Below are positions 54,166-62,953 of a DNA stretch of 64,000 bases, in pieces. The DNA is from an uncultured bacterium. Its GTDB lineage: Bacteria; Planctomycetota; UBA1135; GCA-002686595. Made by a program: the position numbers and the translations under genes. The notes below the pieces were generated by a model, which ran no database searches, was not told the origin of the DNA, and worked only from the letters and a program-made list of their open reading frames with translations. Numbering within the stretch: position 1 is the first letter of the stretch; every line of letters begins with the position of its first letter. Location of the stretch: the NCBI GenBank assembly GCA_943787795.1, contig CALSNU010000004.1, positions 256,001 through 320,000 of the forward strand. Reading direction: 5' to 3'.

Positions 54166-54358
54166 CGCGAGGGAGGCCGCCGGGCCGCCGCCCGAGAACA
54201 GGGCTTCACTCCAGCCCCCTGGACCGCCGATCCAGGGAGAGGGCGCGAGCCGGCCACGGACGACCGTATAGGGATGCGGCGCGTGCTCACGGACCTCTTG
54301 GGCGATAGTCTTGGGGTTCGTAGCGGCCGATCGCGCCAGAACCGCACGCCACCCAAAG

Positions 54359-56345
54359 ATGCCCCCCGACCCCAAGACAATCGCTCAGGTCTTCATCCTG
54401 ACGGTCGGGATCCAGCTGTTCCTGTCCTTCCTCACGACCGCGCGTAGCAGCCGGATGATTCGAGGGGCGGCCCTCGCGTACTTCTTCCTGTACGGGGTCC
54501 TCCTGAGCGTCGCGGAGCAGGCCGACCTCGTGGAGCTGGAGGTCATCGTGAACAGCGTGACGGGCTTCGCCGTGGTCATCCTGGCGGTGGTCTTCCAGCC
54601 GGAGCTGCGCCGCGGGATCGTGAGGATCGGGGACACCCCCCTCCTCCGCCGCTTCCTCGGGCGCCAGTCCTACGACGCCGTGGATGAGGTCGCCGAGGCA
54701 TGCATCTCCATGGCGAAGCGTAAACAGGGGGCGCTCATCGCCTTCGAACGCCAGGCGACCCTCGACTCCTACACGACCAACTCCGTCAAGGTCGACGGCA
54801 ACGTCCATCGGGACCTGCTGGACAGCATCTTCCACACCGGCGGCGCCCTGCACGATGGGGCCGTCATCCTCCGGGAGGGCCGGGTGCTCTGCGCCATGGC
54901 GATCCTCCCGCTGTCAGAGAACGATCAGCTGGCGAGCTCGGTGGGCACCCGACACCGGGCGGCCCTCGGCCTCACCGAAGAGACCGACGCCGTCGTCGTC
55001 GCCGTCTCCGAGGAGACGGGGCTCATCTCGGTCTTCCAGGGTGGAACGATGGAGCGGCGCGTCCTCCGTGATGAGCTCGGCGATGTGCTCCGCGCGCGCC
55101 TCGGCGGGGACGACCTCGCCGCCCCCAGTCGAGCCGAGCGGCGCCCGCTCCTCGGGCGGCTTGCGAAGATGGCCTTCGGAGACCCTGGCGGGAAGCTCAC
55201 GTCCCTGCTCCTCGCCGTCTTCATCTTCTCCCTCGCGGGCCGCGCGGTGATGGGCGAGCAGACCTTCACGGTCGAGGTGCAAGTCGAGGCGGGATCAGAG
55301 GCCAACACCATTCCGACCCGCGGCGTCCTGACCGTCGTGCTCCCGAGCGAGGGTCTGCACCTCGCCAACCCCATGGACGGGGCCCGCCTTGAGGTACGCG
55401 CGGAGGCCTCCGAGGCGCAGCTCGACATGATCCGAGGGGGCCTCGGCGGCGTCCTGCTCGTCGACGAGGGTTGGGTGGGCAAGGAACGCCAGGTGGAGCC
55501 CTCGGACCTCTCATGGGGACTCGGGCGGGTTCTGGGGGAGCTGGAGGTTCAATTCGTCACGCCGGAGGCCCTCGTCCTGAAGGTCGAGCAGTACGCCAAC
55601 GATGAGATCGAGCCCTCGATCGCCTCCCTGGCCACCTCACCGGAGGCTGCTGCGGCCGGAGACTTCGCGCTGATCTCCCTCCCCCAGGCCTCGGGCCTCC
55701 TCGCCGAGTCCCTCGAGTTCAACCCGTCGCGCGTGGGGGTCCGCGGCCCGGCGGACGTGATCGAGTCCATCTCCGCCGACCCCTCGATCCTCGCCTTCGA
55801 GCCGATCGACCTGTCGGCCTATTCGGGGCGAGGCTTCGTCGAGCGCGTGCGGATCGATCGCACGAAGCTGCCGGAGATCGAGATCGACGGGGAGCTGTTC
55901 CTGCGGGGAGAGCTGGCCCCGAAGGAGATCCTGATCACCACGCTGGAACTGGAGGTCGCCCTGGTGTCCTTCGACGCGGCGCGCCTCACAGGCGACATCC
56001 CTTTCCTCCCCCCCCACCGAGCTGGTCAAGGTCCAGGTGATGGAGCGCGGGCTCTTTCCTGAGGGGCTCCCCGAGGCCACACGGACCCAGATGCTCCAGG
56101 AGGTCCTGCAGTTTGCCAGAGAGAACGCGCGGGTCTTCGTGGACGTGGACCGTGCCCTCCGTGAACCGGGTAACCGAGCGCCGGTGGAAATTGATGCCCT
56201 CGACCCGCTCTGGCGCCAGCGGCTCGGCCCCTACTTCAACGAGGCCAAGGCCGACCCGGCGTCCTCGCTCCGCCTCATCGTGGATGATTCCACGAGCTCC
56301 ATCGCCCTTGTCCGCGAACTGCCAGATGACGACCAAGAGAAGTGA
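54359..56345 (+). CDS. dacA: Diadenylate cyclase CdaA fused to a CdaR/YbbR-like extracytoplasmic region; +1 frameshift in a C8 run (56008-56015)
   Basis: 3 TM + VVFQPELRR, LHDGAVI, GTRHRAA; then TM KLTSLLLAVFIF and PSRVGVRGP YbbR-like segment; removing one C joins to ORF 56037-56345. Confidence 0.85.
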
Positions 56346-57723
56346 AGGCCCGATCTTTGGGACCGACGGGATCCGCGGCCGCGCCCTGGAGGGGTGGCTC
56401 ACGACAGCAGCGGTGGAGGCCCTCGGGCGCGCCGCAGGGGCGGTGCTCAGCCGCGACTCCGACGGCAGCGAAGGCGAGGCGCTGATCGCCCACGACGGCC
56501 GCGCCTCCGCCGCTCCGATTCAGGAGGCGCTGGCCCGCGGCCTCGCCCAGTCCGGGATCCGCGCGACGACCGCGGGGCTCCTTCCGACGCCGGGCCTCGC
56601 CTGGCTGACCGGGTCGAGGCCTGTGACGCTGGGAGCCATGATCAGCGCCTCCCACAACCCCGCGGAGGACAACGGGATCAAGCTCTTCGCCGGGGGCGGC
56701 AACAAGCTGACCGACGCAGAGCAGGCCGAGATCGAGGTCCGCCTGCGAGATGAGTTGGAACGGGTCGACCCGGACGCTGAGTCGAACGAGCCGGCCGGGC
56801 CGGCCCTGGCCCGAGACGAGTCCCTGCACTCCGCCTACGCGGATCACCTGGTCGCCCTCGGCACGGAAGGGGACCCCCTGGACCTCAGCGGCCTCAACAT
56901 CGTCGTGGACGCGGCCAACGGGGCCGCGAGCTCGGTCGGCCCCGATGTCCTCCGGCGTCTCGGCGCCGAGGTCACCGGCCTTCACTGCGCGCCCGACGGG
57001 CTGAACATCAACGCCGACTGCGGCTCGACCCACCCGGAGTCCCTGCAGGCGCGGGTCCTTGAGACCGGCGCGAGCCTCGGCATCGCCCTGGATGGCGACG
57101 CAGATCGCTGCCTGCTCGTCGATGAGCAGGGGCAGCTGGTCGACGGGGACGCGATCATGACCATCATCGCTCGCGACGCCGCCCAGAGAGGCCTCTGGAA
57201 GGACCCGCGTATCGTCGCCACCGTGATGAGCAACCGGGGCCTCCACCGGGCTCTCTCCCCCAGCGGCATCGGGGTCCATGAGGTCGGCGTCGGCGACCGG
57301 CAAGTCGTCGAGGGCCTGCGCTCGGAGGGCCTCCGCCTCGGCGGCGAGAAGTCAGGGCACGTCATCTTCGGCTCGGAGAACGGCTTCATCGGCGACGGGC
57401 TCTTGACGGCGCTGCACGTGCTCGGCGTGGCCGTACGTAACCAGGCCACCCTCTCCAGCCTCGCCGCCCCGTTCATCCCCTTTCCGCAGGTCTTGCTCGG
57501 GCTCGTGGTGTCATCCAAGCCTGACCTGGAGACCCTCACTGAGTTCCAGGCCCTCCGCGCCCGCTTCGAAGAGGAGCTGGGCGCAGACGGACGCGTCAAC
57601 GTCCGTTACTCCGGTACGGAGCCCAAGGCGCGAGTGATGATCGAGGGGCCTGACGAGCAGCGAATCGAACAGATGGCCGTTCAGCTCTCCGAGGCGCTCG
57701 CCCGGGAGATCGAGCGCGGATGA
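56326..57723 (+). CDS. glmM: Phosphoglucosamine mutase
   Basis: FGTDGIRG, ISASHNP.EDNGIK, DGDADR, GGEKSGH, RYSGTEP. Confidence 0.96.
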   Translation: MTTKRSEGPIFGTDGIRGRALEGWLTTAAVEALGRAAGAVLSRDSDGSEGEALIAHDGRASAAPIQEALARGLAQSGIRATTAGLLPTPGLAWLTGSRPVTLGAMISASHNPAEDNGIKLFAGGGNKLTDAEQAEIEVRLRDELERVDPDAESNEPAGPALARDESLHSAYADHLVALGTEGDPLDLSGLNIVVDAANGAASSVGPDVLRRLGAEVTGLHCAPDGLNINADCGSTHPESLQARVLETGASLGIALDGDADRCLLVDEQGQLVDGDAIMTIIARDAAQRGLWKDPRIVATVMSNRGLHRALSPSGIGVHEVGVGDRQVVEGLRSEGLRLGGEKSGHVIFGSENGFIGDGLLTALHVLGVAVRNQATLSSLAAPFIPFPQVLLGLVVSSKPDLETLTEFQALRARFEEELGADGRVNVRYSGTEPKARVMIEGPDEQRIEQMAVQLSEALAREIERG

Positions 57724-58427
57724 ACGACAGGTCACGGGAGAGGGTCCGCGAGACACCGAGGCTCGTGGTGGCGCTGGAGACCTCCACCCGCCCGGCCTCC
57801 ATCGCCGCGCGTGGGCCCGAGGGTCAACGCGCTGCGCTCACCCTGGAGGAGGACCGCCGGCACGCGAGCGATCTGCTCGGCGCCCTCGGTGAGCTGGTCA
57901 AGCAGGTCGGCGCGACACCCTCGGACCTGGACCTCGTCCTCGCCGGCACCGGCCCAGGGAGCTACACCGGCCTGAGGGTCGGCGCCTCCACTGCCCTTGG
58001 CCTCATGCGCGGCTCCGACGCAGAGGTCCTCGGGCTGCCCTCCTTTGACGCCATCGCTGCCGACGGCCTCGCCGCCGGAGAGCGCGGCGCCGTACTGCGC
58101 AACGCCTTCGGAGGACACCTCTACGTCGCGGTCTACGAACGCCCGGAGGAGGACGTCCTCCAGCTGGAGGAGCCCACATGCCTGCAGCCAGCCGCGAGTC
58201 TCGAGCTGCTCGCCGACGTGCCCGTGCTCCTGGCCGACGGGGCGGCGTTGAAGGCGCTCGCGGCAGATCCTCCGGCCTCGATGGAGGTGCGGCTGGCTCC
58301 CCGTGCGAAGGCAGAGCATCTGCTCGACCTCGGGCTCAAGCGGCTGGAGGCCGGCGCAGTCCCTGGCGCAGAGACCCTGCGGCCGCTCTACCTTCGCCCC
58401 TACGACGCGAAGGTGCGCCGACGCTGA
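57720..58427 (+). CDS. tsaB: tRNA threonylcarbamoyladenosine biosynthesis protein TsaB
   Basis: ALETST, GPGSYTGLRVG, PLYLR. Confidence 0.92.
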   Translation: MNDRSRERVRETPRLVVALETSTRPASIAARGPEGQRAALTLEEDRRHASDLLGALGELVKQVGATPSDLDLVLAGTGPGSYTGLRVGASTALGLMRGSDAEVLGLPSFDAIAADGLAAGERGAVLRNAFGGHLYVAVYERPEEDVLQLEEPTCLQPAASLELLADVPVLLADGAALKALAADPPASMEVRLAPRAKAEHLLDLGLKRLEAGAVPGAETLRPLYLRPYDAKVRRR

Positions 58428-58506: not shown

Positions 58507-58539
58507 GAGCCGCTCCCCACCATCGGTGGGGAGCGGCTC
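58507..58539. terminator. Bidirectional terminator-like hairpin
   Basis: 15-bp perfect stem gagccgctccccacc / ggtggggagcggctc between convergent genes. Confidence 0.75.
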
Positions 58540-58597: not shown

Positions 58598-58861
58598 TCA
58601 GAGGTCCTGCGGACGCAGGGTACGGCGGTTGTTCGCGTCGGCCCGCGCCTCGGCGCCGGCGATCATCTCGCGAACCTTTTCGTCCAGCGCGGCGTAGAAG
58701 TCACCGGAGACGTTGATCGACGCGCAGGCCTTGGTGCGGCTCTTGCTGATGATCATGTCGACGGCGCCCTTCTTCTTGCTGGCCTTCTTCTTGGTCTTAC
58801 GGGCGGGGGCCTTCTTGGCGGCCGCCTTCTTGGTGGCGCGCTTGGCTTTTTTCTTTGCCAT
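58598..58861 (-). CDS. Bacterial histone-fold protein with Lys-rich N-terminal tail
   Basis: MIISKSRTK...NVSGDFYAALDEKVREMIAGAEARADANNRRTLRPQDL with RxTxxxxD; 15 K + 2 R in the first 31 aa. Confidence 0.85.
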   Translation of the reverse strand: MAKKKAKRATKKAAAKKAPARKTKKKASKKKGAVDMIISKSRTKACASINVSGDFYAALDEKVREMIAGAEARADANNRRTLRPQDL

Positions 58862-59050
58862 GACTCGATGCCCCGAAAGTGGGGCTGGGAGGGTCTGGGT
58901 TTGGATTCAGTGCGGTGAGAGAGAGGATTCCGTAACGCTTCGGGGAGAGTGACGGTCGCGCGAGGCGATGTCAACGGCCAGAATCACCCGAGATGGGCCT
59001 AAATAAAGCCGATCCAGGAAGCGGGCCCCCCGCAGCCTGACCAAGTCGAG

Positions 59051-62000
59051 ATGAAGGACACCGCTGAGGATCTTGAGACGAGAGCGCTGCGACGCTCCCT
59101 CCGGGCGCGGCGACCGCTGGCGGTCGCCGCTCGGGCGGTCGTCAGCCTGGCGGGATGGGTGTGCTTCGTGGGGATCCTGGTGGCGCTGCTGGCGGAGAAC
59201 CACCCCGCCCTCGAGCGCTGGGTCGCCCAGGTGGTCCGAGACCGAGTCGCAGGTGCCCTGACCCGCTCCGTGCAGGTCGACGACGTGGACTTCCGGTGGC
59301 TGGATCGCTCGGTGGCCTTCCGGGGTATCGCCCTCGGGCCGACGGGGCGTGAGCTCCAGCTCGATGAGCTCACCTTGCGCATCGGCTGGAACCCCGAGCG
59401 AGGCCTGCACCTCGACCGAGTGGTCCTCGAGGGCGGCGTCCTCGAGCTCTCCGAGGCGCTCGCTGTGGACATGGAGAAGGTCGGCGAAGGGGACCAGACC
59501 ACCCTCGATTTCCTCGCCAACAGCCCCGAGGTGGTCGTCCGAGACCTCCGCGTGCGGGTGGTCCCGCCGCAGAGCAGCACCATCGCGCTCGGGTCCGTCG
59601 ACCTCTGTATGACCCGACTCACGGACGAGCTGGCGTCGATCTACGGTCGCCTCGTGCCCGCGCTGGGCAGCACTCCGGGCGGCGCCGGGGTGGTGTGGCT
59701 GAACGGGACCCTCGACGCCAACAGGGTCGCGCGCGTACGGGGAGTCGCGCGCAGCCTTGAGCTGGGCAGCGCGCTGCAACGCCGCGCCCTCTCGAACGGC
59801 CTCCTCCCCCCCGAGCTCCTCGCCCTCGACCCCAGCGCGAAGATCGACCTGGTCGCCCACGCGAGCTATGAGATTGGCCGTTCGCTCCTCCCGGACGTGA
59901 ACGGGACGCTGCAACTCTCCCAGGGTGCGCTGGAGCTCCCCTGGATCGAGGACCCGTCCAAGCGGACAGCCACGGACATCGCATTGCTGGTGGACGGGCG
60001 GTTCAACCCGGAGGATCCCGACCACCCGTTCGACCCCGAGGCCTGGCAAGGGCGAGGCGTCCTCGAGGGGCGTATCGGTGGCGTCAAGGCGGCGGCCGGA
60101 TTCCGCCTCGGAAAGGACGCTCCGCTGGGCTCTTCCCTGGAGGTCTGGGCCGACGTTCCCGCCGCCCCGCTGGGCGAGGAGCTGATGGTGTTGATCGGAA
60201 ATGAGCAGAGCCTCTCTGACGTCCACGAGATGCTGGCCAGCCAGGGACAGGCAGACATCAGCCTCGGGGTGCGACTCCGGACCGACGGCGACCCCGGCGG
60301 CGAGCTGGTCGACAACCTCGAGAAGTTCGCCCTCGTCCGCCCAACCGGCGGCGCAGCCCTCGCATACCACGGGGTCGTCGATCCGCGGACCCGGCGGCAG
60401 GGAACCGGATTTCCCGTTCCGGTGGAAGGGGTCATGGGCGACGTCACCTGGAGCGTGCGCACCGAGGGTGAATTCCGCGGACAGCTGGCGTTCTACGACG
60501 TGACCTGCTTCCAGGCCGGCGGCCCGCTCGAGGTCCAGGGGTCGCTGCACTTCACCCCCACTCCGCCGGGTGAGTTGCCCGAGAAGGAAGATCGACCCCC
60601 TGCGCCCTTCCACCTGATCGTCCAGTCCAACTCGCTCCCGGTGGACTCTGCGTTCAGGGCGTCCTTTGACTCGCTCCGCGACGTGGACGCAGCACAAGAG
60701 ATCGTGCCGACCTGGGGTCCCGACGGCGGCGCGCTCGACTTCAAGCTGGAGCTATGGAGGGGACCGGACGATCTCCACATGATCACAGCGATCGACGCCC
60801 AGCTTCGAAACGTCGGCTTCACGTGGGATGCGTTGCCGGTGCCGATCACGGATACGAACGGGCAGCTGCGCATCCGCACCCACACCCAGGGGGAGCGCTC
60901 CTCCCTCCAGCTTCAGGCGACCGCCAGGTCCCCCATCGCTGCCAGCCCAATCCAGATCGAAGGCCGAACGATGAGCGCGGGCACCGACCGCGGGCTTGAG
61001 TGGTTCGAGGTCGACCTGGGCGGCCTGAATCCAGGGCACGAGGCTCTCCGGTCGAGCCTCGTGCAGAACGGCTCGGAGGCCTTGGCTGCCCTCGATGGCT
61101 CGGGGCTCGCGGGGTCCGTCGACGTGAAGGCCACGGTCACACGGGCCATCCCCTTGGCTGACGCCAGAGCCCTCGGTGGCGAGGGGAGCGCTGTTGGCAC
61201 AGGGTCGAACGAGGAGGCTTACCTCGGAGGGCCCGAAGCCTGGCTCGAGTTCCGCCCCACCGATTCCCGCAGCGGGGTCCAGCTTCGCCCCTCGGCGCCC
61301 GGGATCACCACCCGCGAGACCCACGGGAGCGTCCGGGCGTGGACCATGCTGCCCTCCGAGCCCGCCCTGGCGGGAGGAGGGGCTCCGCAGCCGCTCACCT
61401 GGGTCCAAGGGCGCGTCCAGGGCCGGTGGGCCCAGGACGGCCCTCACGTCCCCGTGGTGGCCTTCCTCGAGACCGGCCCAGCCCGAGCGCCCGAACTACG
61501 CGCCTTCGGCGCCGGGCTCGACCTCGCTGACGACAAGCTGGTCTCCGCTCTGACCAGCATCGCCCTGCCCGATGAGTCCACCGGACCCTCCTTCGCCGAT
61601 CAGCAACTCGAACTGCAGGGGCGCGCAGACTTCGAGACTCGACTGCGGCTACCCGAGGAGCCCGGCGCCCCGGTCGAGGACCTCGAGGTCTCCGTGGAGA
61701 CACGCCTGGATCGACTTGGGTTCGGAGACGAGAAGCGGCTGAGCGAGGTGTCCGCGCACTTCAGGCTTGAGCCCGGGACGGGGCAGTGGATCGGAGAGGA
61801 GATCAACGGGCGCCTCGCTGGGACTCCGGTGCAGCTGTCTGACTTTTCATGGGCCCCTGGCGAGGACCGCTCCACCTTCCGCACCCGGATCTCCGCCCCG
61901 AATCTCCCCATCGATGAGGAGCACCTGAGGTTCTTCCTCGACCCCGGGACCCTTCGGACGGTGCTCGATGACCTCAAGGCGAGCGGGCGCTTCGCCCTCG

Positions 62001-62953
62001 AGGACACCACCCTCGAGATCACCACGGAGAAGGACGGGTCCACGGAGGTCTTGCTCGAAGGGGACGTCGCCATCGAGGAGGTGTTCCTGCTGCTCGGCGT
62101 CCCGATCGAGGTGGACAACATCGACCGGATGCGGCTCAAGCTGGCGCATGAGGGGAGCGGACTCCGAACCCGCGCCACCATCGAAGGCCTGAACGGCGCG
62201 CTCGCCGATCGCCGCCTGAAGGAGGCAACGCTACAGCTGAGCTATGTGGAGCCACGCCTAGTCATCGAGGCCTTCGAGGGCGACTTCGAGGGAGGCCGGC
62301 TCCTGGCGGTGGGCAGCGATGAGGCCGCCGCGGCCCCCCTGCTCGTGATCGACCTGGCCCCGCCATTCCCCTTTCAGCTGGCAGCAGAGATGCGTGACGT
62401 TGACGTCGGCCAGTTCCTGCGGGGACTGTTCGACTCCGACTTCGCCAACCGTGGCCGGATGGACATGACGCTCCGACTCGGGGGCGACTTCGAGCACCTG
62501 ACCGCCATGACCGGTGGAGGTGAGATCGAGCTCCGTGACTCGGCGCTCTGGGCCATCCCGGTCTTCCAGGCCCTCTCCGTGGGGCTCGGCATCGACACCA
62601 CCGTCCTCTTCCGCGAGATGTACGCGCGCTACACCATCGCTGACGGTGTGCTCGAGATGGACCGCTTGCGCGTCAACAGTGACCTGCTCTCCCTCGTCGG
62701 CGCGGGGACCGTCAGCTTCGAGGGGAATGTCACGAGCGACCTCGACGTTCGTTACTCGCTCGTTGATCGACTGGGGCCATTCACGCAGCTGGTCTACTGG
62801 ATCCAGGAGAGCCTCCTGCGCGTCTCCATCCGTGGGACCGTTGAACGGCCGGCGGTCGTGCTCCGGGGACTCGCCTCCAGGTTCTTCACTCCTGCCGAAG
62901 ACCGCGACCGCCTTCCCCTCCCCGGCTTCTCTCGCAGGCCGAGGCGCTTCTGA
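59051..62953 (+). CDS. AsmA-like/YhdP/TamB family bridge-like lipid transfer protein
   Basis: N-terminal TM anchor, 1300 aa of beta-rich sequence, C-terminal GAGTVSF..DLDV...VSIRGTVERP. Confidence 0.75.
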   Translation: MKDTAEDLETRALRRSLRARRPLAVAARAVVSLAGWVCFVGILVALLAENHPALERWVAQVVRDRVAGALTRSVQVDDVDFRWLDRSVAFRGIALGPTGRELQLDELTLRIGWNPERGLHLDRVVLEGGVLELSEALAVDMEKVGEGDQTTLDFLANSPEVVVRDLRVRVVPPQSSTIALGSVDLCMTRLTDELASIYGRLVPALGSTPGGAGVVWLNGTLDANRVARVRGVARSLELGSALQRRALSNGLLPPELLALDPSAKIDLVAHASYEIGRSLLPDVNGTLQLSQGALELPWIEDPSKRTATDIALLVDGRFNPEDPDHPFDPEAWQGRGVLEGRIGGVKAAAGFRLGKDAPLGSSLEVWADVPAAPLGEELMVLIGNEQSLSDVHEMLASQGQADISLGVRLRTDGDPGGELVDNLEKFALVRPTGGAALAYHGVVDPRTRRQGTGFPVPVEGVMGDVTWSVRTEGEFRGQLAFYDVTCFQAGGPLEVQGSLHFTPTPPGELPEKEDRPPAPFHLIVQSNSLPVDSAFRASFDSLRDVDAAQEIVPTWGPDGGALDFKLELWRGPDDLHMITAIDAQLRNVGFTWDALPVPITDTNGQLRIRTHTQGERSSLQLQATARSPIAASPIQIEGRTMSAGTDRGLEWFEVDLGGLNPGHEALRSSLVQNGSEALAALDGSGLAGSVDVKATVTRAIPLADARALGGEGSAVGTGSNEEAYLGGPEAWLEFRPTDSRSGVQLRPSAPGITTRETHGSVRAWTMLPSEPALAGGGAPQPLTWVQGRVQGRWAQDGPHVPVVAFLETGPARAPELRAFGAGLDLADDKLVSALTSIALPDESTGPSFADQQLELQGRADFETRLRLPEEPGAPVEDLEVSVETRLDRLGFGDEKRLSEVSAHFRLEPGTGQWIGEEINGRLAGTPVQLSDFSWAPGEDRSTFRTRISAPNLPIDEEHLRFFLDPGTLRTVLDDLKASGRFALEDTTLEITTEKDGSTEVLLEGDVAIEEVFLLLGVPIEVDNIDRMRLKLAHEGSGLRTRATIEGLNGALADRRLKEATLQLSYVEPRLVIEAFEGDFEGGRLLAVGSDEAAAAPLLVIDLAPPFPFQLAAEMRDVDVGQFLRGLFDSDFANRGRMDMTLRLGGDFEHLTAMTGGGEIELRDSALWAIPVFQALSVGLGIDTTVLFREMYARYTIADGVLEMDRLRVNSDLLSLVGAGTVSFEGNVTSDLDVRYSLVDRLGPFTQLVYWIQESLLRVSIRGTVERPAVVLRGLASRFFTPAEDRDRLPLPGFSRRPRRF

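Follow-up and report, generated by a model that had tools for sequence, protein, structure and literature searches.

A Planctomycetota histone of the FtF type with a lysine-rich N-terminal tail

The closest described relatives of the protein analysed here are HLp, a face-to-face (FtF) histone of Leptospira perolatii (PDB 9QT0-9QT2; PMC12701072), and HTkC, an archaeal FtF histone (PDB 9F2C; PMC11390915; bioRxiv 10.64898/2025.12.06.692711); in the available part of the last of these sources, HLp is named as the only other characterised FtF histone besides HTkC. Five residues, S14, K15, K17, K21 and R59, are given as the main DNA-binding residues of HLp (PMC12701072), and the FtF signature is set out on D4GZE0 as R41, N45, R47, T49, D54 and a terminal residue 55 (Schwab 2024, PMC11390915). 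As far as the accessible text of the latter account goes, the tails of bacterial FtF histones are mostly basic, share no conserved sequence, and occur in Planctomycetota, Spirochaetota, Bdellovibrionota and Myxococcota. Lysine repeats have also been described on actinobacterial TopA (PMC7398561), and the lysine-repeat tail of HupB is reported to be needed for nucleoid association (PMC5676037).

The FtF histones that have been studied, HLp and HTkC, lack a long tail. Our search of the open literature, with subscription papers and the image supplements of PMC11390915 outside its scope, found no study of bacterial histone tail function or of the histones of Saltatorellus. Here, we analyse a tailed histone gene within a 64,000-nt stretch of DNA (the window), of which a preliminary description had been made. 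The tail had been presented there as exceptional, which it is not, as basic tails are frequent among the FtF histones of bacteria, Planctomycetota included, according to the available text of PMC11390915. The accompanying statement that most prokaryotic histones are tail-less stands overall, on the accessible part of PMC10627809, but fails for the FtF subfamily. Because earlier publications already cover the family, its occurrence in Planctomycetota and its basic tails, the gene itself is not a discovery; what is added here is the KKATKK-type likeness of the tail to the genome's own H1-like protein and TopA.

The gene, its neighbours and its promoter

The gene lies on the minus strand at 58598..58861 of the window, and its translation, its homologues and its profile matches to HTkC and HLp identify it as encoding an 87-aa FtF (alpha3) histone with a basic N-terminal tail. 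Translation of 58861..58598 gave the protein that had been described, with 15 Lys and 2 Arg among residues 1-31 and with both NVSGDF and ANNRRTLRPQDL in its sequence. The gene stands alone and opposite to its neighbours, as had also been stated: both flanking genes are on the plus strand, one a convergent tsaB-like gene of the TsaD family (57720..58427; PF00814) that follows glmM in conserved synteny, the other a divergent ORF of 1300 aa (59051..62953) with a weak YhdP match under the cut-off. Upstream of glmM, the ORF at 54311-56062 of the window (plus strand) fuses a diadenylate cyclase (DAC) domain to a long YbbR-like region, and together with glmM it forms a cdaA-cdaR-glmM-type arrangement with the first two parts in one ORF. 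Elsewhere in the genome, ARAGORN called a tRNA-SeC (G000:C3:34220-34319), and the genome may use selenocysteine.

We obtained 487 histone homologues at E<=0.001 (protein search, 1677 candidates), in searches that used a tailed query and favour tailed matches; 32 of the 41 related genomes searched held a histone match, and a pattern search of GTDB contigs gave 462 matches, 433 of which encode a relative. The ORF is a real gene and not a chance reading frame. Among the best 80 of the 433 relatives, most come from contigs titled Planctomycetota MAGs, and the probable planctomycete host that had been suggested is supported; these 80 also include close homologues from the cultured Saltatorellus ferox, Engelhardtia mirabilis and Rohdeia mirabilis. 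Histone loci of the Planctomycetota type were also seen in MAGs titled Paracoccaceae and Glaciecola (L053 and L066), which are probably mis-binned contigs. Of the 82 distinct loci, 64 have a tsaB-like gene beside the histone and 43 have the large ORF, and this conserved synteny points to vertical inheritance. The best explanation is that the gene encodes an FtF histone, is monocistronic and has been passed down vertically within one Planctomycetota order.

The search found no copy in 9 of the 41 genomes, 6 of them among the 17 that are at least 90% complete, and a 2.2-Mb order-level relative carries a tail-less copy (L033:1643-1810, minus strand, genome G029), so it does not look as if either the gene or the tail is needed in every genome. 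The tail-less copy has the same TTGACA-type promoter and a clear Shine-Dalgarno sequence, and offers a natural control for tail function. A second, tail-less paralogue (L032:1708-1920, minus strand, genome G032), in which D replaces the FtF Asn and an RKT motif is present, looks like a bacterial dimer-type histone.

Upstream of the gene is a putative sigma-70-type promoter (58946..58974, minus strand), recognised through its conservation and made up of TTGACA at 58974-58969, a 17-nt spacer and CACTCT at 58951-58946; the -35 box lies 113 nt ahead of the ATG. The pattern TTGAC-N18/19-CAnnCT occurred upstream in 64 of the 82 distinct loci, compared with a mean of 0.1 (maximum 2) in shuffles. A stricter form of the pattern has 8 sites in the whole genome, one of which precedes a gene that we take, by its look, to be nusA. 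A related pattern was found before 4 of 46 tRNA/tmRNA genes, against an expectation of about 0.04, and this suggests that the histone promoter is of the housekeeping type. The -10 element is CAnnCT (mostly CATTCT) in the 64 histone loci and TAnnnT in the matching tRNA promoters of the genome; the conserved C at -12 could be a tuning feature.

Between the convergent tsaB-like and histone genes lies a GC-rich hairpin (58507..58539, assigned to neither strand) with a perfect 15-bp stem (z -7.85; 0 of 200 shuffles as good) and with compensatory changes at 4 of 17 pairs among five close relatives. It is a probable shared terminator or RNA-stabilising stem. The gene had been credited with a terminator of its own, and of this claim the conserved stem stands, but it has no U-run; the consensus scan returned 0 promoters and 0 terminators, both elements having come from conservation. 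Contigs from RNA libraries (metatranscriptomes) cover the histone gene in three of four runs of one study, and because the neighbours are equally covered, these contigs can neither rank nor show histone transcription.

Family assignment and structure models

Profile matches and signature residues bear out the original proposal of a bacterial histone and place the protein in the FtF/HLp type. A PDB profile search with 87 homologues gave HTkC at E 5e-7 and HLp at E 1.4e-5, with nothing else below E 2.6, while Pfam and NCBIfam gave the protein no name. The histone-fold domain, residues 35-87 (58598..58759, minus strand), was delimited by conservation across 87 sequences, the HLp alignment, the FtF signature and the four-copy model described below; its 53 residues comprise a short alpha1/L1, a long alpha2 and a truncated alpha3, ending in RRTLRPQDL. 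The spacing of R73, N77, R79, T81, D86 and the terminal L87 equals that of the signature in D4GZE0. Across the 87 sequences, the first four of these residues do not vary and D86 and L87 reach at least 90% conservation, and the RxTxxxxD motif (R79, T81, D86) is present accordingly. R73 and N77 correspond to the FtF tetramer residues R48 and N52 of the family HMM, and the chain ends at L87 just after the Asp. In alpha1, K40 and K44 are invariant and R42 is at least 90% conserved in the same set.

When aligned with HLp, the query keeps four of the five main DNA-binding residues, S14/K15/K17/R59 becoming S41/R42/K44/R83, and we predict that these four contact DNA. HLp K21 falls in a 3-residue gap and has no equivalent, and this contact is lost because alpha1/L1 of the query is 3 residues shorter. 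By every feature that we could test, the query is an FtF alpha3 histone, and it would be expected to work like HLp.

We also tried, and rejected, assignment to the DUF1931 pseudodimeric histones, as the protein is a singlet of 87 aa and not a doublet and scored 13.5 bits with PF09123, under the cut-off of 21.8. The notion that the tail makes up for the shorter alpha1/L1 was likewise rejected: tailed and tail-less proteins with the short spacing (32) numbered 6 each, and those with the HLp-like spacing (35) numbered 8 and 1, respectively, counts that come from the 61 of 150 distant representatives that were parsed, the other 89 being unscored. Several distant matches (P0146, P0155, P0162, P0163, P0170 and others) are tandem doublets of FtF-type folds, with the Asn and RxT motifs in both halves.

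The monomer model had a mean pLDDT of 65.8, with a confident alpha2 and with residues 11-30 below 50. Its helices span residues 40-47 and 53-76, plus one C-terminal turn, in agreement with the short and then long helix that had been described. Fold searches with this model were weak: in Foldseek, HLp and HTkC took ranks 1-4 at rmsd 7.6-7.8 and no match reached E<=0.001, and a wide fold search gave Z of at most 3.9. Modelling of dimers and tetramers, put forward in the preliminary description as a check on the histone fold, gave a four-copy model with an FtF-type contact. Four copies of residues 30-87 scored 0.87, as compared with 0.16 for the best of three controls, and its score reflects mostly the dimer contacts; when the mark was calibrated on two copies, 20 of 30 solved pairs reached it, as did 1 of 23 single chains. 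In the four-copy runs, at least 96% of contacts agreed, at pLDDT of at least 89. The modelled second (dimer-dimer) interface is formed by residues 72-73, 76-77, 79 and 83-86, which are the positions of the HLp R49/S52/N53/R55/T61 tetramer contact. Because the complex resembles HLp and HTkC tetramers that are already solved, the predictor may be reproducing them, and the score shows likeness rather than proven binding; the predicted toroidal homotetramer is consistent with the FtF dimer-dimer contact.

The tail and the chromatin proteins of the genome

The tail, residues 1-34 (58760..58861, minus strand), is predicted from pLDDT, composition, shared 5-mers and the comparison of pN with pS to be a disordered, K/A/R/T-rich, H1-like lysine repeat; 17 of its residues are basic and none is acidic. 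We examined 113 loci for tails, and our parser read 100 of these (82 distinct genes), although it needs a K/R-rich start and is therefore circular on tail presence. Among the 13 loci that it did not parse as tailed, 10 show basic tails, one is the tail-less L033 copy, one is the other paralogue (L032) and one was unread. The survey of tail conservation that had been proposed showed that a basic tail of 12-48 aa (median 32) is conserved across the 82 distinct loci; its composition is 41% K, 25% A, 9% R and 9% T, and acidic residues are nearly absent. The median net charge is +16 for the tail and +2 for the core, and the changes in tail length are repeat indels, all of them in frame.

The description of the tail as eukaryote-like did not hold up. 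We took ARKS, ARTK and GGK (H3/H4 words) to be the modifiable motifs of eukaryotic core-histone tails, and across the 82 tails we counted ARKS and ARTK 0 times each and GGK and GKG once each. The tail gave no PDB match at E<=10, in a search where low-complexity queries are weak, and no Pfam match. Its K/A/T repeat shares words with the stand-alone H1-like protein encoded by this genome, in which 22% of tail 5-mers recur, as compared with 4.2% (maximum 5.8%) for composition-shuffled tails, and KKATKK-type repeats are common to the histone tail, the H1-like protein and the TopA C-terminus. On this evidence, the tail is better described as H1-like than as core-histone-like, and the shared words do not distinguish common origin from convergence. 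A 55-column tree, which is poorly resolved (16 of 68 inner branches starred) and whose tail labels missed at least two tailed rows (P0131 and P0236), joined the tailed clade (99/95) with a sister group of tail-less proteins (94/94, short of the star mark) and put other tailed proteins on branches of their own. This pattern fits repeated gain of tails and does not prove it.

The H1-like protein (G000:C1:1166877-1167254, plus strand; L120:2378-2755) is a stand-alone product of 125 aa that is conserved in relatives. Like the histone, it starts MAKKKA; it carries KKATKK repeats and consists nearly entirely of K (55%), A (23%), T (13%) and V, and its gene has an AAGGAG ribosome site. Pfam and NCBIfam returned no match for it; used as a query, it matched 28 of the 41 genomes, some of these matches being TopA or histone tails because of low complexity. 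In 3 of 12 loci inspected (L130, L131 and L134), its gene is directly upstream of an HU-type gene, a placement that is not seen in this genus, and the product is a candidate major nucleoid protein. The region just upstream of the H1-like gene in the genus contains a pair (G000:C1 ~1164528-1166446; L120:29-1947), first a gene for an MglA-like small GTPase that has a long Pro/Ala tail and then a Roadblock/LC7 (MglB-like) gene. TopA (G000:C2:389380, minus strand) is a topoisomerase I that carries Toprim_C repeats and, near its C-terminus, a lysine repeat in the actinobacterial style with an acidic end after it.

The source genome is 84.9% complete and contains one HU/IHF-family gene, IHF-like by best score but scoring below all cut-offs; PF00216 gave exactly one match in 16 of 18 genus genomes. 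Among the 41 genomes, PF00216 matches numbered 1-4 both with and without the histone, and no clear pattern linked histone absence to HU count. Since the genome has one IHF-like gene together with a stand-alone H1-like protein, the histone is likely to be a major nucleoid organiser. On the condensed planctomycete nucleoid, the open literature yielded one listing, on Gemmata, and none for this lineage.

Proposed mechanism, alternatives and comparison with known systems

The most likely mechanism, to which models and analogy lead us to give a probability of about 0.75, is a DNA-wrapping tetramer whose polycationic tails strengthen binding. Head-to-tail dimers would join via the end of alpha2, L2 and alpha3 into the modelled toroidal homotetramer, and this tetramer, judging from HLp and HTkC, would wrap about 60 bp of DNA independently of sequence via S41/R42/K44 and R80/T81/R83. 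To a nearly neutral core, the four disordered tails would add contact with the DNA backbone; if HupB, HupS and TopA are a guide, they would increase the affinity or the residence time, and may also bridge adjacent DNA. The tail would act as a charge module of variable length and not as a site-specific code. The compaction of DNA that had been claimed is supported as a probable role, by analogy with FtF/HLp-type histones and by the predicted wrapping.

A wider reading, which we put forward as tentative and on the whole unlikely, is that of two-tier chromatin, in which the tetramer, tailed by the lineage's own KKATKK repeats, and an all-repeat linker would largely replace HU, and compaction would be tuned by reversible acetylation of lysines (HDAC/Sir2). 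Were it true, cultured bacteria would hold a convergent core-plus-linker-histone system. Given the low HU/IHF count in the genus and its stand-alone H1-like protein, this is a good lineage in which to ask whether tail-tuned chromatin evolved independently, and the close homologues in three cultured strains make tail deletion and native modification mapping feasible.

We consider it quite unlikely that the tail is regulatory in the eukaryotic manner, with specific lysines acetylated or methylated and read by dedicated proteins as a bacterial histone code. The 15 lysines invite this view, as do K4, K12, K17 and K30, which are at least 90% conserved in a low-complexity alignment that inflates such values; the genome also has one HDAC-family and one Sir2-family gene, and acetylation of HupS is reported to lower its DNA binding, with CobB1 reversing the effect (PMC11229371). 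By analogy to HupS, tail acetylation is plausible. HDAC and Sir2 are not diagnostic, however, because they also occur in 9 and 10 of 14 control genomes, respectively, and the variation of tail length by repeat indels argues against a site-specific code. The lysine methylation that had been suggested finds no partner here, as a search of 18 genus genomes revealed no SET domain, and the 9 of 41 genomes overall that have one include two without a histone match.

Similarly improbable is an HBb-like dimer that bends or coats DNA and forms no wrapping tetramer. The residue at the RKT position is R/K, as is typical of bacterial dimer histones, and the HLp K21 contact is absent from the query, but R73 and N77, both lacking in dimer histones, are kept and are used in the modelled dimer-dimer contact, and HBb was not found by the sequence searches.

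Highly improbable is a mis-annotation in which translation from Met36 yields a tail-less histone, as argued for short HLp: the query has an in-frame ATG at residue 36, the tail's own ATG is without a strong Shine-Dalgarno sequence and the shorter form was chosen for HLp (PMC12701072, in its accessible text), but only 24 of 82 loci have ATG as codon 36, with CTC or TTC in 17, SD-like words stand before the tail start in 29 of 82 loci and before position 36 in 2, the promoter is upstream of the tail ATG and 52 of 64 leaders have no ATG ahead of that one, and tail pN was below pS in 10 of 10 comparisons with close relatives, by crude counts and marginally so for L011 (0.076 vs 0.088). The tail-less isoform was rejected on codon 36 variation, SD counts, pN<pS and the in-frame indels, and the tail is probably translated and under purifying selection, downstream of a conserved promoter.

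Returning to the wrapping tetramer with polycationic tails, the query resembles HLp in its alpha3 fold, R/N/R tetramer residues, RD clamp, hydrophobic C-terminal residue and conserved S14/K15/K17/R59 DNA-contact positions, with about 35% identity in the structure match. It departs from HLp in its 34-residue tail, where HLp has about 7 unresolved N-terminal residues, and in its alpha1/L1, which is shorter by 3 residues, the absence of K21 and the R at the RKT position. With HTkC, its best profile match, it has in common the VSxxFYxAL start of alpha2 and the toroidal tetramer type, whereas HTkC is a 59-aa archaeal protein without a long tail. HBb/Bd0055 (PMC10627809) is similar in being a short singlet histone fold with a truncated alpha3 and an RKT-type motif, but HBb lacks the FtF R/N, showed 16-18% identity in structure matches and gave no sequence-search match. 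The tailed bacterial FtF histones of PMC11390915 belong to the same family and phylum and have mostly basic tails, and as far as that account could be compared, the query does not differ substantially from them. Like HupB, HupS and actinobacterial TopA, finally, the query joins H1-like K/A repeats to a DNA-binding fold; theirs are C-terminal on HU or topoisomerase folds, whereas the repeat described here is N-terminal on a histone fold.
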